Below are positions 1 to 32,294 of a stretch of DNA of 49,134 nt, in pieces. Position 1 is the first letter of the stretch, and every line of letters starts with the position of its first letter. A program made the position numbers and the translations under genes. Location of the stretch: the NCBI GenBank assembly GCA_038213805.1, contig JBBQSO010000037.1, positions 1 through 49,134 of the forward strand, given 5' to 3'. A model generated the notes under the pieces. That model was not told where the DNA came from. It did no database searches and saw only the letters and a list, made by a program, of their open reading frames with translations. Origin of the DNA: Planctomycetota bacterium. Lineage in GTDB: Bacteria > Planctomycetota > UBA11346.

Positions 1-31
1 AACAAAGAACCCACGGTTTTCACCGTGGGTT
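1..31 (-). terminator. Rho-independent terminator of the tRNA-Val/tRNA-Asp unit
   Basis: Minus strand reads AACCCACGGT-GAAA-ACCGTGGGTT then CTTTGTT, just 3' of tRNA-Asp. Confidence 0.75.
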
Positions 32-37
32 TGATGT

Positions 38-114
38 TGGCGACCTGGATGGGACTTGAACCCACGACCTCCGCCGTGACAAGGCGGCGCTCTAACCAAC
101 TGAGCTACCAGGCC
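38..114 (-). tRNA. tRNA-Asp(GTC)
   Basis: Reverse complement GGCCTGGTAGCTCAGTTGGTTAGAGCG...CCGCC-TTGTCAC-GGCGG...GTTCAAGTCCC...GCCA; anticodon GTC, encoded CCA. Confidence 0.97.
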
Positions 115-146
115 AGAATGTAAAGAAAAGCCCGCAGAAACCTGCA

Positions 147-223
147 TGGTAGGCGATGAGGGATTTGAACCCCCGACATCTTCCGTGTAAAGGAAGCGCT
201 CTAGCCAGCTGAGCTAATCGCCC
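147..223 (-). tRNA. tRNA-Val(TAC)
   Basis: Reverse complement GGGCGATTAGCTCAGCTGG...CTTCC-TTTACAC-GGAAG...GTTCAAATCCC...ACCA; anticodon TAC. Confidence 0.97.
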
Positions 224-247
224 ATGCTGCAGGCGATGAGGCGGGGG

Positions 248-275
248 ATTCTGTGATGGGTCCCAAGGTCCGCAA
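248..275 (-). promoter_or_regulatory. Putative sigma70-type promoter of the tRNA unit
   Basis: Minus strand TTGCGG-16 nt-CAGAAT followed by GC-rich discriminator CCCCCGCC upstream of tRNA-Val. Confidence 0.4.
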
Positions 276-494
276 GGGGGAAGTCTGGAAACGGGCAAAA
301 GCCCTGCTCTTGGTGCTAAAGCTCCTTCATGGCGCCTTCACATCGTGTGACATGGTCGGTTGTACGCCTTGGGGCTGCCCCGCTTGATCCCAGCGGGGTA
401 TTGGCTTATAGAACACCTGTGGGGAAGCCTGCTGGCAAATGGCCACGCGGGTCGACCTCGCAGTCGCATTGGCTGGAAAGCCAGGAGAAGCCAC

Positions 495-2546
495 GTGGCC
501 GCAGAGGTTCTGCACGTCAACGACGGTGACTCCCATTGCCGGGTGGCCGATCCGACCAACGGCGCGGTCGTCAACGCCCCGGTCATCGAAATCAGCCTGC
601 AAGGCGTGCTGATCGGCACCCAGATCCAGTTCGAAGCCAACGCCTACATCGATATCACGCTGGCGCTCAAGGACCTGGCCCCGCGCCAGCTGTTCGCCCA
701 TGTGGTGACCTGCAGTCCAGACGGGTTGCGGCTGCGCTGGCTGCACTTCGATCCGGGCGAAGAGACCCGCCTCAAGGGGTTGCTCGATTCCTACACCCGC
801 CTCCATCGGGGTGGCAAGGGGCCAGCGGCGAGTTCGGGCCGGTCACCGACAGAAGGCGCCCAGAACAACACCCGGCGCGTGGTCAAGCCGCGCACCAGCG
901 GGGTCGAGGAGGGGGGTCCGATCCTTGACGGCAGCGTCCCCGCTCCAGGCGCTCCGGTCACCGGCACGCGCCGCCTGGTCCGTCCCAGCGCCTCGGCGAT
1001 CACCCCCTTCAGCGACGCGCTGCCGCCCGAGACCGGCAGCGAGCGCGTCGGTTCGCGGCGCGTGGTGCGCCCGAGCAACTCCGTCATGGCCCCGGTCGAC
1101 CAGGCCAAGGCCGAGGCCGCCCGCGACCCCTTCGACGACTCGCGCTCCCACCAGGTGGTGATCGCGCCCACCGAGCGCTTCGAGGAGCTGCGCGACGTCA
1201 GCACCACGCGCTCCGAGCACAAGCACCCCGCAGAGGCGGGCGCCGTCCCGGCTGCACCGGCGAGCGAGGAAGCGCCCGTTTCCGCCCTGGCGGCGTCGGC
1301 CACCACCACCGGCGATCCGCCGACCTCACCCTTCCCGGGCGACAGCACCGACAAGCACGTCGCCGGCGGCAAGACCGCGGTCATCGGCCGCGACGGCCGC
1401 ATGGACATCGGCGCCAGCATCCGCAGCCACGCCAAAACCGTGCGCGCCTCCGAGCTCGCCGCGCGCCACGACCGCGTGCGCGTGCTCAACATGGCGACCA
1501 TCCGGACGCTGATCGTCGAGGCCGTCGAAGAGGCCGCGGCGCATCTCACGCGCTCGCTGAGCGAGGGCGAGCGCAAGCGCCTGCTCGAAGAGGCCGAAGA
1601 GGGCTTCCAGGAGCGTCTCAAGTCCTTCGAGGTCGAGAAGGCCAGCGCAGAGGAGAAGGCCAAGCGCCTCAACGATCAACTTGAGACCGCGCGCAAGCTT
1701 CTCGAGGACGAGCGCAAGCGCACCATCAAGGCCGACCAGTTCACGGTTTCTGCGGAGGGCCTCGGCGAGATCGAGGACCGCTTCCAGCGCCTGCTCACGC
1801 GCTCGCTCGCCGACGGCGGAGTCTCGCCGCAGCTCGAGGACGAGCTGCGCAAGCTGATCTCGCGCATCCTCGACAGCGAGCGCGAGAAGATCCGCGCCAA
1901 GGAGCTCGAGGCGCAGAATTCCAAGATCGAACTGCTTGAGCGCAAGATCAGCCGCCTCGCCGGCACCCTTGAAGAGACCGAGAAGCAGCGCGACGACGCC
2001 CAGCGCTTCGCGAGCTTCCTGGAACAGCAGGGCGGCGGCGCGCTGCGCAACGTCTTCGAGGCCGGCCTGAAGGAGGGCGACCCGAACAAAGAGCGCAAGC
2101 TCGCGCTGATGAAGCACATCCTCGACGAGAACCGCGCGCTGCGCGGCCACCTCGGCATCGCCCTGGCGGACCCCAACGCACCCGACGAGACCCAGGAGCA
2201 GGCCCCGGACTCGACCAAGAATCCGATCAACCAAGCGACGCCCGACACCTCCTCATTCCGCCGCGAGATGAAGGCCGACGTCGCCGAGCTCAAGGAAGCG
2301 GCCTCGCATATCACCGAGCATACCCCGCACGCGCCCGCGGCCCTGCCCGACGACCTTGAAAGTGAGGCGCTCAGCCGCAAGGAGGCCGGCGTCGGCCTTG
2401 AGGTCAATCCCGACGACGAGCCCTGGGAGGTCACCCCGCTGGCCGACGCCGGCGCCGGTGTCAACGCCTCCGGCATCAAGCGCATCAACGTCCCCACCAC
2501 CTTCGCGCCGCCACCCATGGAGCGCCAGGGCAAGGGGGACGTCTAG
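495..2546 (+). CDS. PilZ-like N-terminal domain / long coiled-coil protein (~683 aa)
   Basis: GTG at 495 with AGGAG at 483-487; N-terminal beta-rich segment with EISLQG (PilZ [D/N]xSxxG-like); Pro/Ser-rich linker; E/K/R/L-rich heptad region; acidic C-terminal tail. Confidence 0.75.
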   Translation: MAAEVLHVNDGDSHCRVADPTNGAVVNAPVIEISLQGVLIGTQIQFEANAYIDITLALKDLAPRQLFAHVVTCSPDGLRLRWLHFDPGEETRLKGLLDSYTRLHRGGKGPAASSGRSPTEGAQNNTRRVVKPRTSGVEEGGPILDGSVPAPGAPVTGTRRLVRPSASAITPFSDALPPETGSERVGSRRVVRPSNSVMAPVDQAKAEAARDPFDDSRSHQVVIAPTERFEELRDVSTTRSEHKHPAEAGAVPAAPASEEAPVSALAASATTTGDPPTSPFPGDSTDKHVAGGKTAVIGRDGRMDIGASIRSHAKTVRASELAARHDRVRVLNMATIRTLIVEAVEEAAAHLTRSLSEGERKRLLEEAEEGFQERLKSFEVEKASAEEKAKRLNDQLETARKLLEDERKRTIKADQFTVSAEGLGEIEDRFQRLLTRSLADGGVSPQLEDELRKLISRILDSEREKIRAKELEAQNSKIELLERKISRLAGTLEETEKQRDDAQRFASFLEQQGGGALRNVFEAGLKEGDPNKERKLALMKHILDENRALRGHLGIALADPNAPDETQEQAPDSTKNPINQATPDTSSFRREMKADVAELKEAASHITEHTPHAPAALPDDLESEALSRKEAGVGLEVNPDDEPWEVTPLADAGAGVNASGIKRINVPTTFAPPPMERQGKGDV

Positions 2547-2655
2547 CGCGGCCCCGCATTCCAAGCTAAAGTATCATCCACCGACCATTCCTTGAACCAC
2601 ACCATGGTTGCCTCCCGTACGGCCAACCACCATCAACGTCCCAGGAGCACGCATC

Positions 2656-3711
2656 ATGTCTGAAATCGTCTATCTCGGCATCGACCTTGGCACCAGCCGC
2701 ACGTCGATCACCTCGTCCACCGGCGTCCGCCAGACCGCTTGGTCCTACGTCGGCTACCCCAAGGACCACGTCGCCAAGAAGAAGCTGGGCGGCCGCGACA
2801 TCATCTACGGCCAGGAGGCCCTTGAGAACCGCATGTCGGTGAACCTGTTCCGCCCACTCGCCGGCGGCTCGATCAAGGCCAAGGGCGCCAAGGACACCTC
2901 CGAGACCAAGAAGGCGATCAAGGACCTGCTCGAGTTCGTGGTCAGCATGGCCAAGTCGCCCAAGGGCTCGACCATCTACGCGGTGATCGGCGCCCCCGCC
3001 GAGGCCAGTGTCGAAGGCAAGGCCACCATCCTCGAAGCCGCCGCCAACTGCATCGACAGCGTGATCGTGACCTCCGAGCCGTTCTCGGTCGCCTACGGCC
3101 TCGACTTCCTCGATGACACCCTGGTCATCGACATCGGTGCCGGCACCACCGATCTCTGCCGCGTCCACGGCAAGATGCCCGAGCCCGAGGACCAGCGCAC
3201 GCACACCGTCGCGGGCGATGCCCTCGACCAGACCCTGGCGAACCTCATCAAGGAGAAGTACCCCGAGGCGCAGTTCTCGATCAACATGGTGCGCGCCATC
3301 AAGGAGCGCCACGCTTCGGTCTCGCCCAAGATGGAAGAGGCCATGGAGACCCTGCCGGTCGCCGGCAAGCCGACCAAGTTCGACGTCACCGATCTGGTCT
3401 ACAAGGCCTGCTACACCCTGGTGCCGCCCACCGTGGCCGCGCTCCAGGACCTGATCGCCACCTACGATCCGGAATTCCAGGCCAAGATGCGCAACCACAT
3501 CCTGCTCGGCGGCGGCGGCAGCCAGATCAAGGCCCTTGGCCTGGCCATCGAGAAGGCCATGGAGGAGTACGGCGGCGCCAAGGTCAAGACCGTCGAGGAG
3601 CCGCAGTACGCCGGTTCGAACGGTGCGCTCAAGATCGCCCTCGACATGCCCGAGAGCTTCTGGAAGGAATTCAAGTCGACCAAGTCGGCTGCTCCGGCCG
3701 CCAAGGCCTGA
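2656..3711 (+). CDS. mamK: MamK-family actin-like ATPase (~351 aa)
   Basis: ATG 2656 with AGGAG; LGIDLGTS (phosphate 1), VGYPKD, AVIGAPAEAS, SEPFSVAYGLD, DIGAGTTD (phosphate 2), PEPEDQ, AGKP, GGGSQI, GALKIAxxxPxxxW: the MamK signature set rather than MreB (MamK-like; function not shown). Confidence 0.85.
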   Translation: MSEIVYLGIDLGTSRTSITSSTGVRQTAWSYVGYPKDHVAKKKLGGRDIIYGQEALENRMSVNLFRPLAGGSIKAKGAKDTSETKKAIKDLLEFVVSMAKSPKGSTIYAVIGAPAEASVEGKATILEAAANCIDSVIVTSEPFSVAYGLDFLDDTLVIDIGAGTTDLCRVHGKMPEPEDQRTHTVAGDALDQTLANLIKEKYPEAQFSINMVRAIKERHASVSPKMEEAMETLPVAGKPTKFDVTDLVYKACYTLVPPTVAALQDLIATYDPEFQAKMRNHILLGGGGSQIKALGLAIEKAMEEYGGAKVKTVEEPQYAGSNGALKIALDMPESFWKEFKSTKSAAPAAKA

Positions 3712-3739
3712 TTCCGCACACGTCAGCAGTGACGCGATG

Positions 3740-3770
3740 GCCCCACTCCGCTCTGCGGGGTGGGGTTTTT
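3740..3770 (+). terminator. Rho-independent terminator after the mamK-like gene
   Basis: GCCCCACTCCGC-TCT-GCGGGGTGGGGT followed by TTTT. Confidence 0.8.
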
Positions 3771-3783
3771 CGTTGAGAGGTTC

Positions 3784-4067
3784 GAGCTACGAGTCACGAG
3801 TCACGAGTCACGAGTCACGAGTCACGAGTCACGAGTCACGAGTCACGAGTCACGAGTCACGAGGACAGCCTGCCTCTGCTACGCAACTCGTAGCCCGCAA
3901 CTCGTAGCTACCTCAGCGCAACGGAACGACGAGCTGCGAGTCGGGAGGACCGCCTGCCTCCACTCGCAACTCGGAGCTCGCAACGCGTGGCTTTCTCCGC
4001 GCAACGGAGCTGCGAGTCGCGAGGACAGGCGGTCTTCCTCGCGACTCGCGACTCGTGACTCGCGGCT
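3784..4067. repeat. Heptamer tandem repeat (GAGTCAC)x10 at 3791-3860 within three heptamer-armed hairpin units
   Basis: 10 perfect GAGTCAC; degenerate GAGCTGC/GAGTCGC left arms and inverted GCAACTC/GCGACTC/GTGACTC right arms around GAGGAC...CCTC cores. Confidence 0.9.
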
Positions 4068-4184
4068 TTCCCAGGCAACGGTCTCTCCGGAGGTTCCGCG
4101 ATTGTCCCGGTCGTGGCTGATGCCCGTAACTGGCGTCGCCCATTGAAATTGCGGGAAAATGCAGGGATTTCCGCGATATTTTCC

Positions 4185-4213
4185 TTGCCCTGCGCAGTCG
4201 CCCTGCTCATAGT
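4185..4213 (+). promoter_or_regulatory. Putative sigma70 promoter of the leader-peptide unit
   Basis: TTGCCC (4185-4190), 17 nt, CATAGT (4208-4213); ATG follows at 4223. Confidence 0.55.
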
Positions 4214-4222
4214 GCCGCCACG

Positions 4223-4344
4223 ATGACCCGCTGCATTCTCATGAAGTCGCTCTCCGCCGTTTCCAGTGCCTAGCACCGGAAGGACGACTTCTAGCGCATC
4301 CAGCGCGGGGCGACCTTCTGAAGAAGGCCGCCCCGCTTCGTTTT
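4223..4344 (+). promoter_or_regulatory. Leader peptide (MTRCILMKSLSAVSSA*) with transcription attenuator
   Basis: 16-codon uORF 4223-4273; terminator GCGGGGCGACCTTCT/AGAAGGCCGCCCCGC plus TTCGTTTT (4305-4344); alternative pairings GAAGTCG:CGACTTC and GAAGGACG:CGACCTTC. Confidence 0.6.
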
Positions 4345-4373
4345 CAGGACCACGTAACCACCCAGGAGTTCCC

Positions 4374-4478
4374 ATGCGCAAATCCCTCTCCCAGCGTATT
4401 TCCGTCGGCGCCGCCGTAGCCGATCGCCTCGACGCTTTCCCCCATCTCACTCAACGAACCACTAGGCACCACCGATGA
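4374..4478 (+). CDS. Small hypothetical protein (34 aa)
   Basis: AGGAG RBS before ATG 4374; stop overlaps next start (ATGA). Confidence 0.45.
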   Translation: MRKSLSQRISVGAAVADRLDAFPHLTQRTTRHHR

Positions 4479-4897
4479 ACCTCACAGCCAACCCTCCGAC
4501 TCCGACCACGCCGCGCGCGCCGCAGGCGCCACCCGCGCCCACCACCCGCACGCGCCGCCGCTTCACCGCGCGCGCTGCGCCGTTCCGGCCAGAGGCGGAA
4601 TCGGCGACCCCGCAGGATCGCCTGCGCGAGGCGCTCGCCGTGCTCGCCCAGGACCGCGCCCCGGGTGGCGACTACCATCCCGCCGATGCCGAGATCCTCG
4701 CCGCCTGGGATGACACCACCCGCCGCTGCGCCGATGATGGCGCGCTGGCCCTCGATCACCTCGACCAGTTCCTGCGCACCCATCTCGGCACGCTCCGCGA
4801 CCTGATGGTGCGCGCGGCTCACGGGCATGGTCCGCACCGCCTGCTCGACGATGTCCACACCAGCGTCGCCGCGCAGCTCGCGCTCGATGGTGGGTGA
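4475..4897 (+). CDS. Hypothetical protein (140 aa)
   Basis: ATGA coupling to upstream small ORF; host-like codon usage; helical C-terminal part. Confidence 0.6.
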   Translation: MNLTANPPTPTTPRAPQAPPAPTTRTRRRFTARAAPFRPEAESATPQDRLREALAVLAQDRAPGGDYHPADAEILAAWDDTTRRCADDGALALDHLDQFLRTHLGTLRDLMVRAAHGHGPHRLLDDVHTSVAAQLALDGG

Positions 4898-4976
4898 GGG
4901 GAGGGCACGACTGGCGCCTGACGACTGACGTCCGACAGCCCGTTAATTCCCGCCATCGTCTCCGCACCTGCATGCA

Positions 4977-5013
4977 TGACTCGAACCCGGCGCTTAGCGC
5001 CGGGTTCGAGTCA
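4977..5013. repeat. Perfect 18-bp inverted repeat (REP-like / bidirectional terminator)
   Basis: TGACTCGAACCCGGCGCT-T-AGCGCCGGGTTCGAGTCA between convergent genes. Confidence 0.8.
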
Positions 5014-5032
5014 GCCATCAGCCGTCCCCACG

Positions 5033-5806
5033 TCAGAACGCCGTGGTCGGCTTTGCGAAGTCCATCTCCTTGATCCAGATGTTGCGGTAGCGCACGTCCC
5101 AACCCTCGCACTGCAGCTTGATGCCGCCGGGCGTGTCGGTGATGCCCTTGCCGTGGTCGTTGCCGCCGTCCAGGCCGGAACGCGGGCCGCCGTATACCTG
5201 GGTGATGGCGTGGTCGCTGTGCGCCTTGACGCCATTGAAGTACATGGTCGCCAGTGGCCGCTCGGTCAGCTTGCCGTCGACGAAGCGCGCGGCGCGGAAC
5301 TGCACGTCGTAGGCGTTCCATTTGCCGAGGCCCGTATAGGCGTCGTAGGGGCCGGCCTCTTCGTTGATCAGCGCGGCTAAACCGTGCGTGCCGCGATCGC
5401 CATCCAGCACCTGGATCTCGTAGCGGTTCTGCAGGTAGACGCCGCTGTTGCCACCCGTGACCATGATGGCGAACTCGACGTGCAGGCGGAAGTCCCGGTA
5501 GCCCTTCTTGGTGACGATGTCGGCGGCGCCGTACTTGCCGCCGGCCGCCGCCGGATCGTCGGTCATCAGCGCGGTCCCGGCATCGACCGGGTCCTTCACG
5601 ATCTGCCATTTGATGGGCAGCGCCGAGGCGAAGCCCGGACCCTCCCAGTAGGTCCATTTCTCATCGAGCATCTGCCGCGTGCCGTCGAAGAGCACTTCGG
5701 CGCCGGCGATGGGCGCGGCGCCCACGCCGAGTTCGGCGGCGTGCGCGGCACCCGCGAGCGCACTCGCCAGCAGCAGGAAGGAGAGGATGCGCAGCGGTGC
5801 GGCCAT
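5033..5806 (-). CDS. DUF1080 (3-keto-disaccharide hydrolase-like) secreted protein
   Basis: Signal peptide; LFDG, DFRLHVEF, GNSGVY, YEIQVLD, WNAYD, GGIKLQCEG, VRYRNIWIK motifs; AGGAG before ATG 5806. Confidence 0.9.
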   Translation of the reverse strand: MAAPLRILSFLLLASALAGAAHAAELGVGAAPIAGAEVLFDGTRQMLDEKWTYWEGPGFASALPIKWQIVKDPVDAGTALMTDDPAAAGGKYGAADIVTKKGYRDFRLHVEFAIMVTGGNSGVYLQNRYEIQVLDGDRGTHGLAALINEEAGPYDAYTGLGKWNAYDVQFRAARFVDGKLTERPLATMYFNGVKAHSDHAITQVYGGPRSGLDGGNDHGKGITDTPGGIKLQCEGWDVRYRNIWIKEMDFAKPTTAF

Positions 5807-6958: not shown

Positions 6959-9900
6959 TCATTGCGGTGGCCGACCGCTGCAGCCCAACCCCCACAGCTG
7001 CTCCAACGGCGCGACGAGCGCCACGCCCATGCGCGTCGCGCCGTAGCCCCAGTCGTAGCTGCGCAGCTGCAGGCGGTGCCAGCCGGCGGTCAGGGTCGCC
7101 GGCACGGTGGCGGACAGCCAGGATTCGGCGGTCTCTTTTTTGGCCATGCCGTCGAACAGGATGGCGTTATCGAGCGTCAGCCTGACGCGCGCCTGCGGCA
7201 TGCTGTGTACGATCACCGTCAGCGGGGTGGTGGCCTCGGCGTGGACCCACGAACTGGCGTACCAGACCTGGGCACCGCCCTTGCCGAGCAGCAGGCGCGA
7301 ATCAAGGGCCTCGACCTGGGCGGGCTGCCAGCGCACGTCGCGCTCGGCCTTCCACCAGCCCGCGATCGGCGCGCCTGAGAAGACCGCCTGGGCGTCGAAG
7401 GGGCCGCTGTCCGGCGGGTAGACGGCCTGATCGAAGAAGGCGCGCACCGCGTCCTTCATCTCGCCCGGCGGATCCGCGACGAAGCGCTCTGCACCCGGGC
7501 CGCCGAAGGGCCCGCACACCAGCCAGTGGCGCAGCACCAGCCCGCCCGCGGCCGGGGCGGAGAATTCCGCCGGCGCCCAGGCGCCGGGATAGAGCCGCGC
7601 CTCGGTGGGTTCGTCAAAAGTCTCGCGGCTCGCTGAGCCGTCGGTGTCGGCCCACCACACCTTGGCGTGGCCACCGAAGGTCGCCTCGAAATCAACGGCG
7701 GTGCGCAGGGCTGGCGACAGCACCGGCAGCCCGGGGATGGCCTCGCGCGGGATGCTGACGCTCACCACGTAGCCCTTGCCGTCGGCATCGCGTCGACCGC
7801 CGAGGACGGCGCCCTCCAACTCGCCGACGTGCGCGAACTGCGTCTGGCCCACCGGCGTGCGGTAGGCTTGTGGGCTGGCGCCGGACCGCGACCAGGCGGG
7901 ATGGAAGCCGATCGCCGCGGGGCGGACCGTGCCGCCATCGTCGAACAGGCCGAGCACGATGCGCAGGTCGCCAACGCGTCCGCCGGCCTCGCCGCCCGGC
8001 TTGGCCGCGGGATCGCCCTGCAGATAGAAGCTCACCGCGTCGCTGATGCGGTCGTGGGCGAAGACGCGTTCGAGCGGCCGCAGCGCGCGCGGCGTGAAGT
8101 CCGTGCCGGTGCGTGCATGGATGCGCAGGTGGAGGTGGCCGGGATCCCATAGACAGCGCACCTCGACGGTGCGCTCGCGGTCGGCCTGGAAGGTCAACGG
8201 ATCGCACTGCTCCCAGCCGGCCAGGGAGCCGTCGTGCTGGACGCCACCGAAGGCGGGTGCGAAGCGCGCGAGCCGGGCGTTGCCGGCGCCGCCGCGCAAG
8301 GCCAGCGCGACCTCGGGCGGGCTGACGATCTGCGCGAGGCCGATCTCGACCTGCGCCTGCAGTTCGCTGAGCTGGCGCACCGGGTTGTCGTGCAGTGACC
8401 AGCCCAGACAGCGGAACACCAGCGGCGTGTCCTTGCCGACCCCGACGAAGATGCCGCCGTCCTGGGGGTCGCCATAGACCATGCCCGAGAAGAACTCACC
8501 CGGCAGATCGTAGATCCCCAGGCGGCTGCCGCCGGGCGGGAACAACGTGTCGACGTAGAGTCCGTCCTGGTCGTAGAGCAGCACGCCGCAGCGCGTCTGG
8601 TCGAGGACCGGCAGCAGGCCGTTCAGCGGCGCGCGGATGTGCATCGCGCCGACCGTCTCGCCGGGCTGCGGTGGTCCGTTGATCGCGGCACGCCCGACGC
8701 GCCAGCGCAGGCGCATGCCGCCTTTGCCGTCGGGCACGTAGGCCGAGACCTTCTCCTGCGCGGCGAAGTTGGCGCTGAAGTTGCGGCCACCGCGGGCGCT
8801 GACCCAGAAGCCCTGCTCTGGAGTGCCGTCGCACTGTGCCCAGTCGCTGCTGTAGCTGTCGGCGGTCTCGTTGCCGCCAGTCAGGGCGGTGGCGGTGCCG
8901 GCGGCGCGCGCGGTGAAGACCGGGTCGGTGAGGATGCGCTCCCACGCGCCGAACTCCGGGATGCCGCGCTCGTCACAGCCGGTCACCGGCAGCCGCCAGA
9001 CGTCGCGCCCGCCCTGGTTGATGGCGAGCAGCGCGAGGTCTGCGCCGACCTGTTCGCCGTGGTAGCGCAGGATGGTGCCGGGCAGGGTCATCGGCGTGGA
9101 CCGGAATTCGCTCTCCTCGACCTTGCCGTCGCCGTCGCTGTCACGCCAGGCGAAGTGCTGCGTCGGGCCCGCGTCGCTGCGCACGCCGACGATGCCGGCC
9201 GCAAGCTTCCAGCGGTCGCCGTCGAGGCGGTAGATGGCGTACTGGCCGCGCGGTGTGCACACCAGGTACGGCCGCCCGCCGCGCGTCACCATGCGCACGT
9301 GGTCGAAGCCGGGCAAGAAGGGATCGGTGCCGACGTCCGGCCACACTGCGTCGACGGTGAAGCTGCCGCTGGTGTAGTCGATGGCGAAGCGCGTCAGCCA
9401 GCCTTGTTCGCCGGCGATGTAGGCGTGGTGCGGATCGGCGGGATCAACCGCCCAGCCGTCGTTGGCGCGGGTCTGCAGGCTGGGAAATTCGCGCAGCAGC
9501 TCGCCCTCGGCGCTCCATTCGCTGGTGCGGCACGGACCGGCCTTTTCGACCACCAGCAGACGGTCGTGACCCTGCGCATCGGTCCACGAGGCGAGTTTCT
9601 CCGGGTACATCAGGGTCTCGCGGTCGTAGGCCCCCGGCTGCTGGCGGTCGCCGCGGCCGAAGCTGCGCAGGCGCTTGCCGTCGGCGGCGTACTGGTGCAC
9701 GCGGTTCGCGGCGGGCTCGCTGACGTAGATGCGGCCGCTGCCGTCCACCGTCAAACCGCCCGGATCCATGGCGGCGGGCAGCTCAAGGACACGCTTCCAG
9801 CTGCCGGTGGGTCTGCCTTCCGCCAGCGGCATCGCGCTGACGGCCCAGCCGGCGTCGGTCCCGTGCAAGCCGTAGAGCTGGCCGCCGCGCGCGGCCAGGC

Positions 9901-11407: not shown

Positions 11408-11573
11408 GACGGCAGCGCGTGACGGTCGGCAATCTGCAAACGGGGGAGGCATGAGGGAAGTTGGTCGGACCAGGTATCTGTGACCGCCCTCTGCGGGCAC
11501 TTGCACTACATATTCAATTGATAACAATTAGTCGGATTCGCGGCCTGCTACGATGTGCAGCATAAGGATCCCA

Positions 11574-13022
11574 ATGTCCCTTTTTTCAAGCGCCGCTGCC
11601 GTTGCGCCGCGTCATGGCCCAGCGCTAAGCGGGGCCGGGGCGACTCCAAACGCGCCGCTGCGCATCGTCCTGATCAGCCCGAAGGGCCCGCTCTACCGCC
11701 ATCGCGGCGGCATCTTCGGCAAGGGCCTGCGCTACATGCCGCTGACCCTGACCACACTTGCGGCGCTGATCCCCACGGACCTGCCGCACACCGTCGCCTG
11801 CCTGGATGAGGGCATCCAGGACGTACCGGTCGACACCCTGGAAGCCGACCTGGTCGGGATCACGGTGATCACCGGCACCGCGCCGCGCGCCTACGAGATG
11901 GCCGCGGCGCTGCGCGCGCGCGGCATCGCAGTCGTGCTGGGCGGGCCGCACCCGACGCTGATTCCCGACGACGCCCAGCCGCACGCCGACGCGGTGGTGG
12001 TCGGCTATGCCGAGGACGAGTGGCCGCGTCTGCTGCGCGACTTCACCGCCGGAACCATGCGCCCGCGCTACGTCGCCAGCCGCGACCTGGTCATCGGCGG
12101 CCGTCCAGAGCCGCGCCGTGAGCTGCTGCCGCGTCGGCGTTATCTGATGGACGATGTCTTCGAGGCGACGCGCGGCTGCGTGCACGCCTGCGACTTCTGC
12201 GTGGTGCCGGCGGCGTGGCCGGGCCGGCCGTGGCAGAAGCCACCCGAGGAGGTCGCCGAGTCGATCCGCCGCAAGGGCTCGCGCCGCGCCCTGTTCGTCG
12301 ACCTCAACATCATCGCCGACCGCGGCTACGCGCTGCGCCTGTTCGCCGCGCTGAAACCGCTGCGCATCCACTGGTTCGGGCTGTCCACCACGCTGCTCGC
12401 CGACGACCAGGAGCTGCTTGACGCCGCCGCCGGTTCCGGCTGTCGCGGCCTGCTCATGGGCCTGGAATCGATCGATGGCGGGGCGCTCAAGGGAATGCGC
12501 AAAGGCTTCAACGACCCAACGCGCTACGGCGAGCTGGTGCGGCGCCTGCACGAGCGCGGCATCGCCCTGCAGGGCTGTTTCGTATTCGGCGGCGACCATG
12601 ACGGTCCGGACATCTTCATGCGCACCGCGCGCTTCGCGGTCGAGGTCGGCATCGACCTGCCGCGCTTCGCCATCCTGACACCCTTCCCCGGAACCGCGCT
12701 CTACCGCCGGCTGCTCGCCGAGGGCCGCCTGTTGCACCGCGACTGGGAGAAGTACGACGGCCAGCACGTGGTCTTCCGTCCGGCGCGCCTGGGCGTGGAT
12801 GAACTGCTGCGCGGCACCGAGCAGGCGTGGAAGCACTGTTACTCGTGGTCGGCGATGTTCAGCCGCCTGCGCCGTACCGCGGCGCCGCTCCACGTCGCGC
12901 TGGTCACCAACCTCGGCTACCGCTTCTACGCGCACCGCCTGCACCGCTTCTACAGCTGCGACGCCTTCAGCTGGGACGCGGCGCCGGCGGCGGCCGAGAC
13001 CGCCAGCTCGGCGGCCGGATGA
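11574..13022 (+). CDS. B12-binding domain radical SAM enzyme 1
   Basis: PLTLTTLAAL, DLVGIT, VVLGGPHPT, GYAE (cobalamin-binding fold); TRGCVHACDFC; GLES; TPFPGT. Confidence 0.92.
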   Translation: MSLFSSAAAVAPRHGPALSGAGATPNAPLRIVLISPKGPLYRHRGGIFGKGLRYMPLTLTTLAALIPTDLPHTVACLDEGIQDVPVDTLEADLVGITVITGTAPRAYEMAAALRARGIAVVLGGPHPTLIPDDAQPHADAVVVGYAEDEWPRLLRDFTAGTMRPRYVASRDLVIGGRPEPRRELLPRRRYLMDDVFEATRGCVHACDFCVVPAAWPGRPWQKPPEEVAESIRRKGSRRALFVDLNIIADRGYALRLFAALKPLRIHWFGLSTTLLADDQELLDAAAGSGCRGLLMGLESIDGGALKGMRKGFNDPTRYGELVRRLHERGIALQGCFVFGGDHDGPDIFMRTARFAVEVGIDLPRFAILTPFPGTALYRRLLAEGRLLHRDWEKYDGQHVVFRPARLGVDELLRGTEQAWKHCYSWSAMFSRLRRTAAPLHVALVTNLGYRFYAHRLHRFYSCDAFSWDAAPAAAETASSAAG

Positions 13023-14392
13023 AGCCGGCTCCGTTCCGCCTGACCATCATCCATCCCTGCGTCGGCCGGCGTGTCGGGCAGCGCGGCTACATCCGCACCT
13101 GGAAGATGGAGCCGCTGCCGGCGGCGACCATCGCCGCGCTGACTCCGCCGGACGTCGAACGGCGCTTCTACGACGACCGCCTTGAGCCGATCCCCTTCGA
13201 CGAGCCGACCGACCTGGTGGCGATCAGCGTCGAGACCTATACCGCGCGCCGCGCCTACCAGATCGCCAGCGAGTATCGACGCCGGCGCGTGCCGGTGGTG
13301 ATGGGCGGCTTCCACGCGGCGCTGTGCCCCGACGAGGTCGCGCGCTACGCCGACGCGGTGGTGATCGGCGAGGCCGAGGAGCTCTTCCCGCTGATGCTCG
13401 ACGATTGGCGCCACGGGCGCGGCAGCCACGTCTACCGCGCCGAGAGCCGGCCGCGCAGTCTGCGCGTCGCGCCCGACCGCAGCATCTTCCGCGGCAAGCG
13501 CTACCTGCCCATCCGCCTGGTCGAGACCGCGCGCGGCTGCCGCTTCGCCTGCGAATTCTGCGCCATCACTGCGGTCTTCACCGCGACCCAGGTGCGCGCG
13601 CCGATCGAGCGCGTGCTTGGTGAGGTGCGCGCGCTCAAGCGCCCGGGCCTGCTGTTCTTCTTCATCGACGACAACATCGTCTCCGACCTGGCGGGCGCGA
13701 AAGAGCTGTTCCGCGCCCTGGCCGGCGAGGGCATCCGCTGGGTGGGGCAGGCATCGAGCACGGTGGCCTGTGACGAGGAGTGCCTGGCACTCATGCGCGC
13801 CTGCGGCTGCCAGGGACTGCTGATCGGCTTCGAATCGCTGGGCGCGGAGCAGCTCGGGCAGATGAACAAGGGCTGGAACCTGGCGCGGGGCGGCCCGTCC
13901 GCGGCGATGGCGACACTGCGCCGCCACGGCATCCGCGTCTATGGCACCTTCATCTTCGGCTATGACCACGACGACGCTGCGTCGTTCGCGCGCTCGGTGG
14001 GCTTCGCGCGCGACGAAGGCATGTTCATCGCCGCCTTCAACCACCTCACGCCCTTCCCGGGCACGCCGCTGTACGCGCGGCTCGAGGCCGAAGGGCGGCT
14101 GCGCTTCCCGGCGTGGTGGCTGGATCCGGCCTACCGCTATGGGATGGTGCCGTTCATCCCGCGCGGCATGCCGGTCGAGGAGCTCGAGCAGCGCTGCAGC
14201 GCGGCGCGGCGCGCCTTCTACGGCTGGGACAGCATCTTCGCGCGCGCCCAGGCGCGGGTGAACCGTCACGACCCGTGGATGCTGCTCAATTTCCTCGCCA
14301 TCAACGCCATGCACCGCGCCGACGTGGTCGGGCGCAACCATCTGCCGCTGGGAGACGCCGCGTGGACCGGGGAACTGTTGCGCGTGTCATGA
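13019..14392 (+). CDS. B12-binding domain radical SAM enzyme 2
   Basis: ATGA overlap; DLVAIS, VVMGGFH, GEAE; ARGCRFACEFC; FFIDDN; GFES; TPFPGT. Confidence 0.92.
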   Translation: MKPAPFRLTIIHPCVGRRVGQRGYIRTWKMEPLPAATIAALTPPDVERRFYDDRLEPIPFDEPTDLVAISVETYTARRAYQIASEYRRRRVPVVMGGFHAALCPDEVARYADAVVIGEAEELFPLMLDDWRHGRGSHVYRAESRPRSLRVAPDRSIFRGKRYLPIRLVETARGCRFACEFCAITAVFTATQVRAPIERVLGEVRALKRPGLLFFFIDDNIVSDLAGAKELFRALAGEGIRWVGQASSTVACDEECLALMRACGCQGLLIGFESLGAEQLGQMNKGWNLARGGPSAAMATLRRHGIRVYGTFIFGYDHDDAASFARSVGFARDEGMFIAAFNHLTPFPGTPLYARLEAEGRLRFPAWWLDPAYRYGMVPFIPRGMPVEELEQRCSAARRAFYGWDSIFARAQARVNRHDPWMLLNFLAINAMHRADVVGRNHLPLGDAAWTGELLRVS

Positions 14393-15438
14393 GCGGCGGG
14401 CCGGCGCAGGCGCCGCGCGTCGCCCTGGCGCTGCCGGGCGACGCCGCGGCGATCGCGGCGCTGCTCGCCACGCCCTTGCCGGGCGCGCTGCGCCTGGTGC
14501 TGGCCGCGCCGGCGGCAGCCTGCGCCCCGCACGAGGATGCCGGCGTCCGCCATCACGCGGTGGTGGTGCGCAGCGCCGCCGGCGCGGTGCTGGGCCACGG
14601 TGCGCGTACGGTGCGGCGGCTGCGCGGCGCGGCGGGTTGGGGCTGGACCGGCTACCTGCACGGCCTGCGTCGCAGCGATGACCTGGCAGGCGACGGCCGC
14701 CGCCTGGCGGCGGCACTGCACGAGCTGCAGGCGACGCGGCGCGACGACGAGTGCGCGCACGACCTCACTGCCATCCTCAGCGCGAACCGGCGGGCGCGCC
14801 GGGTGCTGGAAGGGGGGCTGCCCGGCGCGCCAGCCTACCGCCATCTCGGCGATTACCGCACCGTGGTGCTGGTCGCTGCCGGCGCGGCGCGCTGGCAGGC
14901 CGCCGGCATCACGCTGCGCGCGGGTCTCGCACACGCCGCCGACGCGGTGCGCGCCATGGTCGCCGAGCAGGCCGGCGGCTACGCGCTGGCGGCCGATTTC
15001 GCGGCGGCCGGTTGGTGGACGGCGTGGCGCGGCGAGCGCCTGGTGGGCGCGGTGCGCGCCGTCGACCGCCGGGCCGAGCAGGTCGCGGCGGTCGACGGCT
15101 ACGCAACGGGGCTGGGTTTGGCGCGCCCGCTGCTCAACGTCGCGCTGCGCTTCGCGGGCCGGCCGACCCTGCCCGCACCCGGTGCGGACCTGGGTCTGAT
15201 ATACGCGGCCCATCTGACGGTGCCGGACGCGGACCCCAATGTGGTGCGCACCCTGCTCGCCGCAGTGGCGCGTGCCAGCGACGCTCGACGGGTGGTCTGG
15301 GGACTCGGTGCCGGCCATGCGCTGCGAACTGCGCTCATGCGCCTACCGGGCTGGAACCTCGACAGCCGCCTCTACGCGGTGGGCGGGCCCCCGTCCGCCG
15401 GTGCGCCCGCAGCGAGCCCGGAGGCGGCGTGGCTGTGA
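14389..15438 (+). CDS. Putative tandem GNAT-fold protein
   Basis: ATGA overlap; DAAAIAALL, GYLHGLR, TAILSANRRARRVL (GNAT motif B-like); second lobe with LVGAVRAVD. Confidence 0.6.
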   Translation: MSGGPAQAPRVALALPGDAAAIAALLATPLPGALRLVLAAPAAACAPHEDAGVRHHAVVVRSAAGAVLGHGARTVRRLRGAAGWGWTGYLHGLRRSDDLAGDGRRLAAALHELQATRRDDECAHDLTAILSANRRARRVLEGGLPGAPAYRHLGDYRTVVLVAAGAARWQAAGITLRAGLAHAADAVRAMVAEQAGGYALAADFAAAGWWTAWRGERLVGAVRAVDRRAEQVAAVDGYATGLGLARPLLNVALRFAGRPTLPAPGADLGLIYAAHLTVPDADPNVVRTLLAAVARASDARRVVWGLGAGHALRTALMRLPGWNLDSRLYAVGGPPSAGAPAASPEAAWL

Positions 15439-16169
15439 ACGTGCGCCTCGACGCGATGGACAGCCTCGACGGCGCGGCGTGCGACGCGCTCGTCGCGCTG
15501 CTGCAGCGGCACTTCGAGGGCGTCGACGCGGTGGGCTTTGCCGCCGACCTCGCGGGCAAGACCCACGTGCTGCGCCTGGTGGCGGACGACGGTGCCGGGC
15601 TGGTGGGCTTCACCACCCTCGACTACCGGCGGCGGCCGGTTGGCGGTGAGCCCGCGGCGCTGCTCTATTCCGGCGACACCATCGTCGACCCGGCGGCATG
15701 GTCGGATGCCAGCCTGGGCGGGGCGTGGATGGCGGCGGTCCTGGCGTTGCACGCGGGGGCCGGGCCACCGGTGCCGTTGTGGTGGCTGGTGCTGACCTCG
15801 GGCGTGCGCACCCACCGCTATCTGAGCGCGTTCGCCTGCCGCTATGCGCCGGCCACGGCGGAGCGTCTGGACGGCGACGCCGCCCGCTTGCTGCCAGAGC
15901 TGGTGCGCGAGCGCTTCGGCGCCGACTACGATCCCGCCGCGGGCGTGGTGCGCTTCGCCCGGCCGCAGCGCTTGCGCGGACACCTGGCTGGTTTGCCCCC
16001 GCACCTGCGCGGCGATCCGGCGGTACAGGCGTTCCTGGCGGCGAACCCGCACCACGCCGCGGGTGACGAGCTCCCCAGCCTATGCCGGCTTGAGGAGGCC
16101 AACTTCACCGCGGCCGGCCGCTTCGCCCTGCGCCGCGGGCGGCGCGCCATGGCAGTCGCAACGCAATGA
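15435..16169 (+). CDS. GNAT-like hypothetical protein
   Basis: GTGA overlap; LVGFTTL, LLYSGDTIVDPAAW, WWLVLTSGVRTHRYL, FLAANP..GDEL. Confidence 0.65.
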   Translation: MNVRLDAMDSLDGAACDALVALLQRHFEGVDAVGFAADLAGKTHVLRLVADDGAGLVGFTTLDYRRRPVGGEPAALLYSGDTIVDPAAWSDASLGGAWMAAVLALHAGAGPPVPLWWLVLTSGVRTHRYLSAFACRYAPATAERLDGDAARLLPELVRERFGADYDPAAGVVRFARPQRLRGHLAGLPPHLRGDPAVQAFLAANPHHAAGDELPSLCRLEEANFTAAGRFALRRGRRAMAVATQ

Positions 16170-17761
16170 TCGCCGGCGCTCTCAACCGGCTGTGGCACAT
16201 CGCCTGCCTGCCGGGCGCGCGGCGCTTCGCGGCGGCGCTCGCGGATCCGGGCGCCGTCCAGCGTGCGCGCCTGCTGGCGCTGGTGCGTCGCCACGCGTCC
16301 AGCGCCTTTGGCCGTGCCCACGGCTTCGCCGCGGTGCGCAGCGTCGCGGATTTCCGCGCGCGCGTGCCGGTGCAGGAATGGGCGCAGGTGGCGCCGTGGG
16401 TGGAACGCATCCGCCGCGGCGAGCAGCACGTGCTTGGTGCTGAGGCAGTGACGCGGTTGCTGCCCACCGGCGGCAGCGGCGGCGGCAGCAAACTGATCCC
16501 GTGGACCGCGGGTCTGGCCGGGGAGTTCGCCGCGGTGCTGGCGCCGTGGATCGCGGATCTCCAGCGCCGCCACCATGCGGTGCTGGATGGGCCGGCCTAC
16601 TGGTCGGTGTCGCCGCGCATCCCGGAACTCGCCGGCGGGGCGCTGCCGGTCGGCTTTGCGGACGACAGTGCCTATCTCGGCGGCGTGTGCGCGGCGCTGG
16701 TGCGGCCGCTGCAGGCGGCGCCCGCGGCGCTGCGCGGGTTCGCCAACGTCGAGGACTTTCGCTATGCCACGGTGCGCTGCCTGCTGGCACGTCCGGAGCT
16801 GCGCCTGATCTCGGTGTGGCATCCGTCCTTCCTGGGCCTGCTGCTCGACGCCGCGCGCACCCACCGCGCGCGCCTGTTGCGCGATGTCGCGCACGGTGGT
16901 CTCGATCTCGCAGTGCCGCCCGCGCTGCTCAGCACATTGGCGCCGTGGTTGGGTGCGCAGCCGCGCCGCGCCGCGGCGCTGGCCACCGCCGACTGGGACG
17001 ACGCGCGTCAGCTGTGGCCGCACCTGGCGGTGGTCAGCTGCTGGGCCGACGGCGCTGCCGCAGTGCCGGCCGCGGCGCTCGCGCGCAGGCTCGGCGGTGC
17101 GGTGCTGCAGGCCAAGGGGCTGCTCGCCACCGAGGGGGCGGTGAGCATCCCGTGGGGCGGCCGCACCGTCGCCGCGGTGACCGGCGCGGTGCTCGAGTTC
17201 CTCGCCGCCGACGGCACGCCGCACTGGCTGGATGAGCTCGACGACGGCGCCACCTATACCGTGGCCATGACCACGGCGGGCGGGCTGTGGCGCTACCGCC
17301 TCGGCGATCTGGTGCGCGTGGAGGGCTTCGTCCAGCGCACGCCGTGCCTGCGCTTCCTCGGCCGCGGCGATGCCACCGTCGATCTGGTCGGCGAGAAGCT
17401 CGACGAGGCCTTCGTCGCCACCTGCCTCGCGCAGGCGGCGCCGCAGGCCGGCTTCGCGCTGCTCGCGCCGGCGCCGGGCGGCAAGACCGGCTACATCCTC
17501 TATAGCGACCAGTGCGATGCCGACGTCGCCGTCAGACTCGAAGCAGCGCTGGCGCGCAATCCCCATTACGCCCTGGCGCGCAGCCTCGGGCAGCTCGCGC
17601 CGCTGCGCTGCGCGCTGGTCGGTGCCGGTGCCGAGGCCATCGTCCTGGCGCATCGCGCGGCGGGACGGGTGCTGGGCGCGGTCAAGCCGGTGGTGCTCGA
17701 CGGCGATCCGGAATGGGGGCGGCGCCTAGCCGCGGTTCACGTGGAGGGCGCGCCATGCTGA
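16166..17761 (+). CDS. GH3-family acyl-adenylate forming (acyl-amido) ligase
   Basis: PTGGSGGGSKLIP (P-loop TSGS-like), GLLATEG (YxxSE-like), TTAGGLWRYRLGDLVRVEGF, FLGR, GEKL. Confidence 0.88.
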   Translation: MIAGALNRLWHIACLPGARRFAAALADPGAVQRARLLALVRRHASSAFGRAHGFAAVRSVADFRARVPVQEWAQVAPWVERIRRGEQHVLGAEAVTRLLPTGGSGGGSKLIPWTAGLAGEFAAVLAPWIADLQRRHHAVLDGPAYWSVSPRIPELAGGALPVGFADDSAYLGGVCAALVRPLQAAPAALRGFANVEDFRYATVRCLLARPELRLISVWHPSFLGLLLDAARTHRARLLRDVAHGGLDLAVPPALLSTLAPWLGAQPRRAAALATADWDDARQLWPHLAVVSCWADGAAAVPAAALARRLGGAVLQAKGLLATEGAVSIPWGGRTVAAVTGAVLEFLAADGTPHWLDELDDGATYTVAMTTAGGLWRYRLGDLVRVEGFVQRTPCLRFLGRGDATVDLVGEKLDEAFVATCLAQAAPQAGFALLAPAPGGKTGYILYSDQCDADVAVRLEAALARNPHYALARSLGQLAPLRCALVGAGAEAIVLAHRAAGRVLGAVKPVVLDGDPEWGRRLAAVHVEGAPC

Positions 17762-18402
17762 GCCCGCGGCAGACCGGCGACGGCCCAAGCGGCCGCGGCG
17801 AGCAACGCGCCGCCGAGCACGTCGACCAGCACGTGCTGGCGCGTGGTCAGCGTGGCGATGGCGATGGCGGCGCCCCACGCCCACACCCACCACGGCCACG
17901 AACGGCAGGCCAGCACCACGCCGACGTAGGCGACGTGCAGACTGGGCAGCGAATTGTAACCCTGGTCGGCGCGGTGCAGCGCGGTGAATATCGCGCGGCC
18001 GAACGCATCCTCGGGCAGCGGCCCCGCCACCATGGTCAGCGGTGCGGCGAGGAACACCGCGTAGGCGGCGACCATGGCCAGCAGCGCGGCGCGCAGCAGG
18101 CGGCGATAGGGGATTGCGTCGGCGCACCAGGCGGCGAGCAGGGTGTAGGGTCCCAGGCTGAGGTAGACCGCCACGGACAGCGGCAGCCACGGCAGCAGCC
18201 CGTCGAGCGGCGAGATCCAGGCGGCGGGCGGTCGCGGGTGCAGGTGGACGGCCAGGGTGGCGACCGCGGGATAGGTGGCCGAAGCCAATCCCCACATGCC
18301 GAGCATGGCCAGCACGCGGGTGCGCCGTCGCGAGAAGCGTCCGTCCGGGGCGTGATCACCGCCGTCCGCGTCCTCCGCTGCTGTCGCGCCGCTCCATACC
18401 AT
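17737..18402 (-). CDS. PAP2-superfamily membrane protein (AUR1/IPC-synthase-like)
   Basis: Multiple TM segments; NSLPSLHVAY and TRQHVLVDVLGG catalytic motifs; true start may be 18306. Confidence 0.8.
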   Translation of the reverse strand: MVWSGATAAEDADGGDHAPDGRFSRRRTRVLAMLGMWGLASATYPAVATLAVHLHPRPPAAWISPLDGLLPWLPLSVAVYLSLGPYTLLAAWCADAIPYRRLLRAALLAMVAAYAVFLAAPLTMVAGPLPEDAFGRAIFTALHRADQGYNSLPSLHVAYVGVVLACRSWPWWVWAWGAAIAIATLTTRQHVLVDVLGGALLAAAAWAVAGLPRAQHGAPST

Positions 18403-18515
18403 GTCTCCACCTCATCGGCGCGGACGTGCGGTCAAGCTCCTGGTCCGTCCTGGCGCAGACGCGCGCGGCCCGCACCATCTGCTGCAGCGGCCCGCGTCCC
18501 AATCATGGAGGCCTC

Positions 18516-19124
18516 ATGAAACCGTTCCTGCGCGCACTCGCGCTCTGCTGGCTGCTGATGACCGCACTCGCCGCGGTCGAGGTCGAGGTCGAGGCCGCGC
18601 CCGATGACGGCCGCGCTGCCGACCACGCCGCGCTGCGCGCCCTGCTCGAGCGCGCGGTGGCCGCGCTGAACAGTGGCGACCCCGCGCGCCTGGGCGACTG
18701 CCTGGCCCCGGGCCTCGACCTGACCTTCGCCGACCAGCATCACTTACGCAGCATCGCCGAGCTCACCGCCTACGCGACCCGCCTGCGCGTGGAGCACGAC
18801 ATCACTGCGATCACCTTTGCTCCAACGAGCGACGGTCCTGCGCGCTTCCTTGGCGAAGATGTGGCCATCGCCACCGGCACCTCGCACGACACCTTCGTCG
18901 GCGGCGGAGCGCCGCTGGTGATCGACTCGCGCTGGACGGCGACGCTGCAGCGCAGCGCGGACGGCTGGCGCATCGCCACCCTGCACATCGGCGTCGACCT
19001 GATGGACAACGCCATCCTCACCGTCATCCGCCGCACCGCCCTGATGTGTGCGCTGGGCGCCGCGGTGGTGACCCTGCTCGTTGGCTTCCTGCTCGGCCGC
19101 TGGCTGGGCCGCCGCCGCGCCTGA
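18516..19124 (+). CDS. NTF2-like (DUF4440/SnoaL) protein with signal peptide and C-terminal membrane anchor
   Basis: GGAG RBS; AALNSGD, SRWTATLQR..DGWRIATLH; C-terminal TM helix plus RRR. Confidence 0.75.
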   Translation: MKPFLRALALCWLLMTALAAVEVEVEAAPDDGRAADHAALRALLERAVAALNSGDPARLGDCLAPGLDLTFADQHHLRSIAELTAYATRLRVEHDITAITFAPTSDGPARFLGEDVAIATGTSHDTFVGGGAPLVIDSRWTATLQRSADGWRIATLHIGVDLMDNAILTVIRRTALMCALGAAVVTLLVGFLLGRWLGRRRA

Positions 19125-19128
19125 CGCC

Positions 19129-32171: not shown

Positions 32172-32294
32172 GGGCACCACCTCATGCCGGGTCAGGTAGT
32201 CGGCTTTCCTGGGCGGGTCAAGGCGGGATGGGGAGAGGAATAAACCATCGGTGTGGCCATCAGCCGTCACGGACGGGAGTGCCATCGCGGAAAC

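Follow-up and report, generated by a model that had tools for sequence, protein, structure and literature searches.

Positions 495 to 3711 of contig C37 (JBBQSO010000037.1) of a Planctomycetota bacterium encode two proteins that probably form a dedicated two-gene cytoskeletal module of the Planctomycetota, unrelated to magnetosomes and consisting of an actin of the MamK superfamily and a cognate coiled-coil partner that is predicted to dock on this actin. The contig was analysed over its whole length of 49,134 nucleotides (nt), referred to as the window, and belongs to a 5.5-Mb assembly (GCA_038213805.1; 180 contigs, about 90% complete). This interpretation is based, by computation, on the family placement of the actin, the conservation of the gene pair, the domain architecture of the partner, and a predicted interface on invariant residues; the same computations support the main inference of the original prediction, namely that of an actin that is unrelated to magnetosomes and has a coiled-coil partner. 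The partner gene (495..2546, forward strand) codes for 683 amino acids (aa; P0122). It lies in an open reading frame (ORF) of 360..2546 on the forward strand, in which a GTG codon at 495, preceded by a Shine-Dalgarno-like AGGAGA (483..488), gives a start residue that is shared by the aligned homologues. A spacer of 109 nt (2547..2655) separates it from the actin gene (2656..3711, forward strand; ATG at 2656, stop codon ending at 3711), which codes for 351 aa (P0001). The unit is followed by a terminator-like hairpin of 13 pairs, nine of them G-C (3739..3767), with a T run behind it (TTTTCGTT), and is preceded by tRNA-Asp (38-114) and tRNA-Val (147-223), both on the reverse strand. The ORFs, tRNA genes, and hairpin thus bear out the coordinates originally given and the view of a two-gene unit beside tRNAs that is closed by a terminator. 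MamK-like actins have already been published from bacteria that are not magnetotactic; what is new is the conserved partner, in which a predicted docking helix is combined with heads of exchangeable type.

A first line of evidence concerns the family identity of the actin. The NCBIfam family MamK (NF040964) was matched with 387 bits (E 6.4e-116; cut-off 400), actin residues 6-341 covering profile positions 2-332 of 335, compared with 208.5 bits for BeeR and 59 bits for MreB. In Pfam, the generic family MreB_Mbl was matched at 64 bits, and weak matches were found to ParM_N (23.7 bits, below the cut-off) and Alp7A_like_C (22.8 bits). Among all PDB chains at E <= 0.001, only MamK (5jyg; 255 bits, E 8.4e-75) and BeeR (8r2n; 135 bits) matched, and no MreB, ParM, or FtsA chain did so. 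At the level of sequence, this supports membership of the MamK superfamily rather than of MreB or ParM, in agreement with the earlier claim of a MamK-type and not an MreB-type actin. The relatives of this actin (72-100% identical among the 120 matches listed) carry the label 'rod shape-determining protein MreB' in database records, so that genome annotation misnames MamK-like actins as MreB; a canonical MreB is encoded elsewhere in the genome, on contig C3. Nine residues (D10, G12, E141, D159, G161, G163, D166, G286, and G287) show no variation among 45 aligned rows and align with MamK 5jyg. We take them to represent the phosphate, catalytic, and adenosine motifs of nucleotide binding, which hence appear to be intact. 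The second-best match, both as family and as structure, is BeeR (8R2N; NF053558), likewise a MamK-related actin of non-magnetotactic bacteria of the Planctomycetes-Verrucomicrobia-Chlamydiae (PVC) group. BeeR is a three-stranded tubular actin of Verrucomicrobiota, related to MamK and having a disordered N-terminal domain as its hallmark (PMC11929497). The window actin differs from it, as its score is far below the BeeR cut-off of 530 bits, the clade of BeeR-like proteins is a separate one at the base of the tree, and its fold starts at residue 5, without a disordered N-terminal domain.

Within the MamK superfamily, the actin is not a canonical magnetosome MamK, as its sequence sits in a separate clade. 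A quick IQ-TREE analysis of 77 rows, rooted on the MreB of the genome itself and run without ParM or FtsA rows, placed the window actin within a MamK-like assemblage, in a clade of its own of seven rows (Shimodaira-Hasegawa-like approximate likelihood-ratio test 100). The anchors P0279 and P0321, which are nearest to Magnetospirillum MamK (463 and 416 bits to 5jyg, respectively), fell into a different clade of 14 rows (support 99), and the backbone between the clades was poorly resolved. Forcing the seven rows of the window clade and three anchor rows to be monophyletic was rejected (log-likelihood difference 90.96; approximately unbiased (AU) test, p 0.007), the group for this test having been chosen after the tree was seen. 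The original naming as a MamK-family actin therefore holds for the superfamily, on the basis of profile, PDB, and tree, but not for canonical MamK. In addition, the NCBIfam MamK model cannot split magnetosome from non-magnetosome members, given the gapless distribution of its scores and the existence of a high-scoring protein away from magnetosome genes. Indeed, 855 relatives of the actin were found at E <= 0.001 among 1.84 billion cluster representatives, and the scores of 69 full-length representatives formed a gapless continuum from 174 to 508 bits, a representative 51% identical to the window actin scoring 420.5 bits, which is above the cut-off. Similarly, a search of a metagenome collection with P0279 yielded five loci, the one long locus of which (L071:9965-11017) encodes a MamK-family protein of 489.6 bits that has hemL, ATP-synthase, rimO, and IHF genes as neighbours, no Mam family being matched by the 21 ORFs scanned there. 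This indicates that an annotation as 'MamK' does not imply magnetosomes and that the cut-off of NF040964 would give this name to some non-magnetosome actins.

The genes encoding other magnetosome proteins were searched for both in the window and in the genome. A Pfam scan of 33 further ORFs of the window revealed no mam-like family, which agrees with the earlier statement that the 49 kb contain no mam-like genes. The whole-genome search consisted of the NCBIfam models for MamI, MamP, and MamQ (NF040963, NF040965, and NF040966, respectively; NF040962 and NF040967 are unrelated families), and none of the three exceeded its cut-off in the about 90%-complete genome, the best matches being 29.9 bits for MamP (cut-off 300) and 83.9 bits for MamQ (cut-off 250). 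FtsZ, the lack of which in planctomycetes had been mentioned in the original prediction, was not found in the genome, the control being matched in 13 of the 14 genomes.

Some members of the MamK family are fused to other domains. A clade of 14 MamK-family proteins (P0255-P0273 and P0294) of 523-1232 aa has the actin at the C-terminus, and in the four fused proteins that were read it is preceded by a helical head, which is conserved, and by a long stretch that is acidic and rich in Pro and Glu. None of 17 N-terminal extensions scanned (13 from the 14-member clade) contained a Pfam family, and P0294 is an FtsZ-MamK fusion (ftsZ, 351.5 bits). A Rosetta-stone fusion of partner and actin was sought among 150 representatives and rejected, as neither of the two partner profiles described below (A1 and A3) found a partner part in the fused MamK-family proteins.

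A second line of evidence is the conservation of the gene pair. At E <= 1e-40, the actin was present in 104 of the 301 sampled genomes of the phylum, including all 15 genomes of the family to which the window genome belongs, its identity to the window actin falling into two bands (>= 66% and 42-57%). Profile A1, representing the close partners, matched 37 of the 301 genomes, and wherever a partner occurred on the contig of the actin it was located directly upstream on the same strand (rows compared by eye), including both copies in each of two genomes (G081, G037). The match of A1 to distant families was confined to its positions of about 270-540. Among 18 distant loci that were fetched, upstream ORFs of 260-570 aa, including those of three loci that A1 had missed, share this core and end in the motif GL...D....KK.L(L/M)..IF..N..L, those of 260-400 aa stopping right after the docking helix. 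Profile A3, which includes these distant upstream ORFs, matched directly upstream on the same strand at no fewer than 81 of the 132 actin places and in at least 72 of the 104 genomes, the gap being 19-761 nt; only actin-adjacent matches were used, as the raw count of 126 of the 301 genomes was inflated by GGDEF-only matches. Likewise, when the docking region was used as a 76-column profile, a match at most 900 nt upstream was obtained in 62 of the 77 loci whose upstream DNA extended over 300 nt or more. In a set of 65 named loci, A1 matched upstream in 50 and downstream only in eight, five loci having no upstream DNA and two having no match. The actin and its partner are the only real gene families common to more than 20 of these 65 loci, and no third conserved gene was present beside the pair in the flanking ORFs. 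The pairing is far beyond chance. The partner is moreover kept beside actins that are only 45-57% identical to that of the window, and in duplicated copies, and the conservation of the pair in relatives, proposed originally as a check, was indeed found. None of the 65 named loci came from a cultured organism; those near the window actin are all labelled as metagenome-assembled genomes (MAGs) of uncultured Planctomycetota, bar some submitter labels Kuenenia, Verrucomicrobia, and Akkermansia. In the MAGs labelled Verrucomicrobia or Akkermansia, the actin of which is 75% identical to that of the window, a partner-like gene was located downstream in eight of the nine loci. At the one such arrangement that was read (L015), partner-like genes flank the actin on both sides (4143-5744 and 7097-8545), each with the docking-helix motif.

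Thirdly, the partner has a multidomain architecture. In neither Pfam nor NCBIfam did the window copy have a match at E <= 0.1; its homologues at E <= 0.001 number at least 188 (40-100% identical among the 120 listed). An AlphaFold2 model built from 36 homologues had a mean predicted local distance difference test (pLDDT) score of 63.6, and sequence conservation peaks in the head, three linker motifs, the core (here residues 298-560), and a tail motif. The N-terminal head (residues 1-108; 495..818, forward strand), a beta-barrel with a helix modelled at pLDDT > 90, is predicted to have a PilZ fold, its best Foldseek matches being the PilZ domains 4xrn and 4rt0 (Alg44; E 3e-6, template modelling score 0.71-0.73 by target length). 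Pfam PilZ (PF07238) was matched by 12 of the 36 aligned homologues at E <= 0.01, but not by the window copy. The head is followed by a disordered linker (residues 109-294; 819..1376; pLDDT < 50), containing three (T/S)RR(V/L)V(K/R)P motifs (residues 126-132, 158-164, and 187-193; nt 870-890, 966-986, and 1053-1073), of which R159, R160, and R189 are invariant in the 36 homologues. The strongest conservation is found in the core (residues 295-561; 1377..2177), the only part common to the window partner and the distant partner genes, which comprises a head segment (HDRVRVLNMATIRTLIVEAVEEAA in the window) and long coiled-coil helices; the region is helical from residue 305 on, with helices modelled at 333-354, 357-415, 420-440, 445-511, and 532-553. 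The last of these is the docking helix (KERKLALMKHILDENRALRGHL; 2088..2153), in which K535, M539, N546, R547, and R550 are invariant in the 36 homologues; G524, K535, and N546 are invariant across the distant partners too. The disordered C-terminal tail (residues 562-683; 2178..2543) carries an NPDDEPW motif (residues 638-644; nt 2406-2426) and a GIKRI...PPP motif, and its residues D640, D641, W644, K662, and P673 are invariant in the 36 homologues, whereas distant partners have no such tail. The best score in a protein-atlas search with residues 295-683 was 0.85, which is below the meaningful level, and no description of the partner family and no published link between a MamK-like actin and PilZ were found in the literature searched.

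Fourthly, a direct contact of the two proteins is predicted. Modelling of a complex of the actin (45-row alignment) and partner residues 295-683 (36-row alignment), with user-supplied alignments, resulted in scores of 0.67, 0.72, and 0.72, compared with 0.00 for the best of three controls. In calibration, 116 of the 157 solved complexes and two of the 215 mismatched pairs had reached this mark, counts that are only rough here because of the user-supplied alignments. The runs agreed in at least 70% of the contacts, the partner having a pLDDT of at least 59. The contacts of lowest error are those of partner residues 535-550 with actin residues 137-139, 147, 152, and 327-339, and include columns that are invariant in the independent partner and actin alignments. 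On the actin, the modelled site consists of the cleft between subdomains Ia and IIa and the C-terminal helix, and residues 640-676 of the partner tail touch subdomain IIb. The complex prediction thus returned an interface for the originally proposed pair and supports direct binding of the partner to the actin. WH2 peptides on actin and the C-terminus of ParR on ParM use the same Ia/IIa cleft, in which a short amphipathic helix is here predicted to lie beside the C-terminal helix of the actin. A helix in this cleft suggests an end-binder or a regulator of the filament rather than a cargo tether of the MamJ type. The positioning of a cargo or compartment, which had been put forward originally, is not supported, as nothing points to a cargo.

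A mechanism may be proposed from these elements. The 351-aa protein would be an ATP-binding, filament-forming actin and the partner a coiled-coil dimer, the amphipathic helix (residues 532-553) of which would insert between subdomains Ia and IIa, where the actin has a hydrophobic cleft. By holding monomers or filament ends, this helix would anchor, cap, or feed the filament, and the N-terminal head, which varies between a degenerate PilZ domain in the window and, elsewhere, a degenerate GGDEF domain that has RxxD, would receive an input, possibly cyclic di-GMP (c-di-GMP), or determine localisation. As to the cellular role, it is a guess that the module serves shape, polarity, budding, or division in a genome in which FtsZ was not found. 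Planctomycetota shape and divide their cells without FtsZ, and the actin-partner module, with a partner that is kept at about 50% actin identity, is one of the best-conserved candidates for a cytoskeletal system in this phylum. Moreover, the predicted contact provides a precise target, namely four invariant residues of one helix.

Whether c-di-GMP acts on the module was considered in view of the earlier description of the partner as a PilZ-like coiled-coil protein that might be gated by c-di-GMP. The first part of this description stands as far as the predicted fold and the long helices are concerned, but the canonical PilZ motifs are absent, so that the gating was not borne out. The fold is that of the PilZ c-di-GMP receptors (Alg44, 4RT0; 4XRN; YcgR, 5Y6F), from which the head differs by lacking RxxxR before the barrel and by having E-[IL]-[SGN]-x-x-G (EISLQG in the window copy, its S not being conserved) in place of the second motif, D/NxSxxG. 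RxxxR-like RRVVR motifs occur only in the linker, after the barrel. In the genome as a whole, no protein matched Pfam PilZ, and the only two Pfam GGDEF matches adjoin on one contig (G000:C125:3363-4966). In one other family (f5), the partners (L076:1155-2141, L082:1203-2585, and L089:2084-3178) carry a GGDEF domain (60.7-63.5 bits) instead of the head segment, behind which come the coiled coil and then the docking helix. These GGDEF domains have degenerate active sites (MGDRI, QDDRI, and LDDSI, respectively), with RxxD five residues before, which we take to be the pattern of inactive GGDEF domains that bind c-di-GMP. Two different c-di-GMP-type domains on one scaffold suggest a link between this second messenger and a bacterial actin, a description of which seems not to have been encountered in the literature. 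Judged by its sequence, an input of c-di-GMP to the partner head is a tentative possibility that deserves consideration, though less than even credence. The wider idea, that FtsZ-less Planctomycetota possess a c-di-GMP-coupled actin cytoskeleton, in which a dimeric partner holds filament ends by its WH2- or ParR-like helix, exchanges PilZ and GGDEF heads, and drives shape change, budding, or division, is speculative and rather unlikely. If true, this would give bacteria an equivalent of the signal-regulated nucleators and cappers of actin.

Among known systems, the nearest non-magnetosome counterpart may be the 'saltatorellin' of Saltatorellus, a MamK-like actin for which a preprint (10.1101/817700) reports filaments in Escherichia coli and M. 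gryphiswaldense; the report on the filaments is repeated in a further paper (PMC11032199). Both are non-magnetosome MamK-like actins of the PVC group, and the genomes with saltatorellin also hold MreB, as does the window genome. The window actin probably belongs to the same broad group. Its relatives end in ...YWE(K/Q)LK, and the reverse primer given in the preprint passages for saltatorellin encodes YWEQLK (10.1101/817700); the start encoded by the forward primer, MTDITTD, was present in no protein or ORF checked. The two differ in that the preprint passages name no partner protein and that the clade of the window actin consists of uncultured MAGs only. A 2025 FEMS review of the Planctomycetota contained no mention of MamK or a cytoskeleton. 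With MamK itself (5JYG, 5LJV; NF040964), the actin shares its best full-length sequence match and its superfamily in the tree, and the pair resembles MamK and MamJ in that a non-enzymatic partner is encoded just upstream of the actin, mamJ being located upstream of mamK in Magnetospirillum. In Desulfovibrio magneticus RS-1, the partners of MamK are the coiled-coil proteins Mad20, 23, 25, and 26 (PMC12748827). The differences are the separate clade, the rejection of a joint one, and the fact that no magnetosome genes were found beside the window actin. The window partner, moreover, matches no NCBIfam or Pfam family.

Several observations weigh against the interpretation as a conserved, non-magnetosome actin-partner module. 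With respect to the pair, no upstream partner match was found at 51 of the 132 actin places among the matches listed. All 12 actin-bearing genomes of one family (f54: G061, G086, G111, G131, G150, G168, G185, G202, G218, G234, G280, and G295) are without a detectable upstream partner, the docking motif not being seen at the two loci of this family that were read (L086 and L087). The same holds for the second actin copies of family f49 (42-46% identical), and no partner was shown at L054, L064, L086, L087, and L090. With respect to the partner, the overall model has a predicted template modelling score of 0.28 and a pLDDT < 50 for 281 of the 683 residues, and the window head, which fails Pfam PilZ and lacks RxxxR, has H in place of the single R7 of the family. 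With respect to the contact, the complex score is the confidence of the model in itself, obtained with user-supplied alignments, and part of it may reflect likeness, as the docking mode resembles that of the solved ParM-ParR and actin-WH2 complexes. The identity with saltatorellin rests on a likeness of six C-terminal residues to the relatives of the actin. Finally, MamI had no match in the genome or in any control genome, so that this negative is without a positive control, and a magnetosome island may lie on missing DNA, given that the genome is about 90% complete.

Four other explanations were weighed. The one that survives best, albeit unlikely, makes the partner chiefly a negative regulator that would sequester monomers or cap filaments via the cleft without anchoring them, resulting in a self-limiting filament system switched by the head. 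It draws on the predicted site, a cleft that serves the longitudinal contacts of actin-like filaments, on the wrapping of subdomain IIb by tail residues 640-676 in the model, and on the sensor-type head. Yet a coiled coil of about 250 residues exceeds the needs of a sequestering peptide, the long conserved core before the helix implies further functions, and one-to-one co-conservation cannot tell capping from anchoring.

DNA segregation of the ParMRC or Alp7 type, with the actin pushing DNA and the partner binding a centromere-like site, perhaps through its RRVVRP motifs, is improbable. The helix-in-cleft contact is how ParR holds ParM; the weak matches of the actin to ParM_N and Alp7A_like_C, the three invariant arginine-rich linker motifs, and a repeat array just downstream (3789-4023) would also fit. 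However, the actin groups with MamK and shows no sequence relation with ParM, ParM_N remaining below its cut-off and no ParM structure being matched at E 0.001. The partner, a large coiled-coil protein with a PilZ head instead of a small DNA-binding protein such as ParR, is without a DNA-binding family in Pfam or NCBIfam, the gene order is adaptor and then actin, and the unit is chromosomal, common to many families of the phylum and without mobile-element neighbours.

Little probability is likewise left for the explanation that the two genes are merely co-transcribed neighbours, the products of which do not touch, and that the complex model is a false pass. Two of the 215 mismatched pairs did reach the mark, and alignments of one's own fall outside the calibration. 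Against this, adjacency has been kept across actins that are 45-57% identical to that of the window and in duplicated copies, and the interface maps to the invariant residues of the only C-terminal element that short distant partners have retained.

That the organism is magnetotactic, its actin being mamK with a MamJ-like partner and its magnetosome island lying elsewhere or unassembled, is very improbable: the MamK score just below the cut-off, the Magnetospirillum-like gene order, the incompleteness of the genome, and the magnetosome clusters reportedly present in Planctomycetes MAGs are outweighed by MamI, MamP, and MamQ staying below their cut-offs, by the lack of mam neighbours of the pair in 65 related loci, by the occurrence of the actin in more than 100 of the sampled phylum genomes, far above the known occurrence of magnetotaxis, by the separation from the MamK anchors in the tree and AU test, and by the high MamK score off any island at L071.

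Besides the cytoskeletal pair, the window contained several other features. An Rfam search of window positions 1-5000 yielded the two tRNA genes only, and no riboswitch was found. Contigs from metatranscriptome libraries (X17 and X19; 85-99% alike) fall mostly on the actin gene, and a 281-nt contig from the RNA library of a relative spans the gene junction (2496-2775), which is a weak hint only; these contigs were given no weight, since they cannot show a transcript and DNA may be present in such libraries. Right behind the terminator, a perfect heptamer array (ACGAGTC x 10.7; 3789-3863) is overlapped by a looser repeat with a period of 83 (3845-4023). The other genes of the window include members of the Pfam families DUF1552 and DUF1585-1595, which we take to be typical of Planctomycetes. 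A GC-rich stretch (11553-21942; GC content up to 0.76) contains two genes for B12-binding radical-SAM proteins, a GH3-family gene, and genes for a Rieske protein and a fatty-acid desaturase, and may represent a lipid or natural-product cluster. Lastly, an island of low GC content (32000-40000; 0.47-0.53 versus about 0.68 elsewhere) may have been acquired horizontally; it contains a gene for a Pretoxin-HINT protein (34158-36545, reverse strand) and part of an ORF of 2804 aa (36481-44895, reverse strand) with GSDH, PKD-like, and Calx-beta domains.

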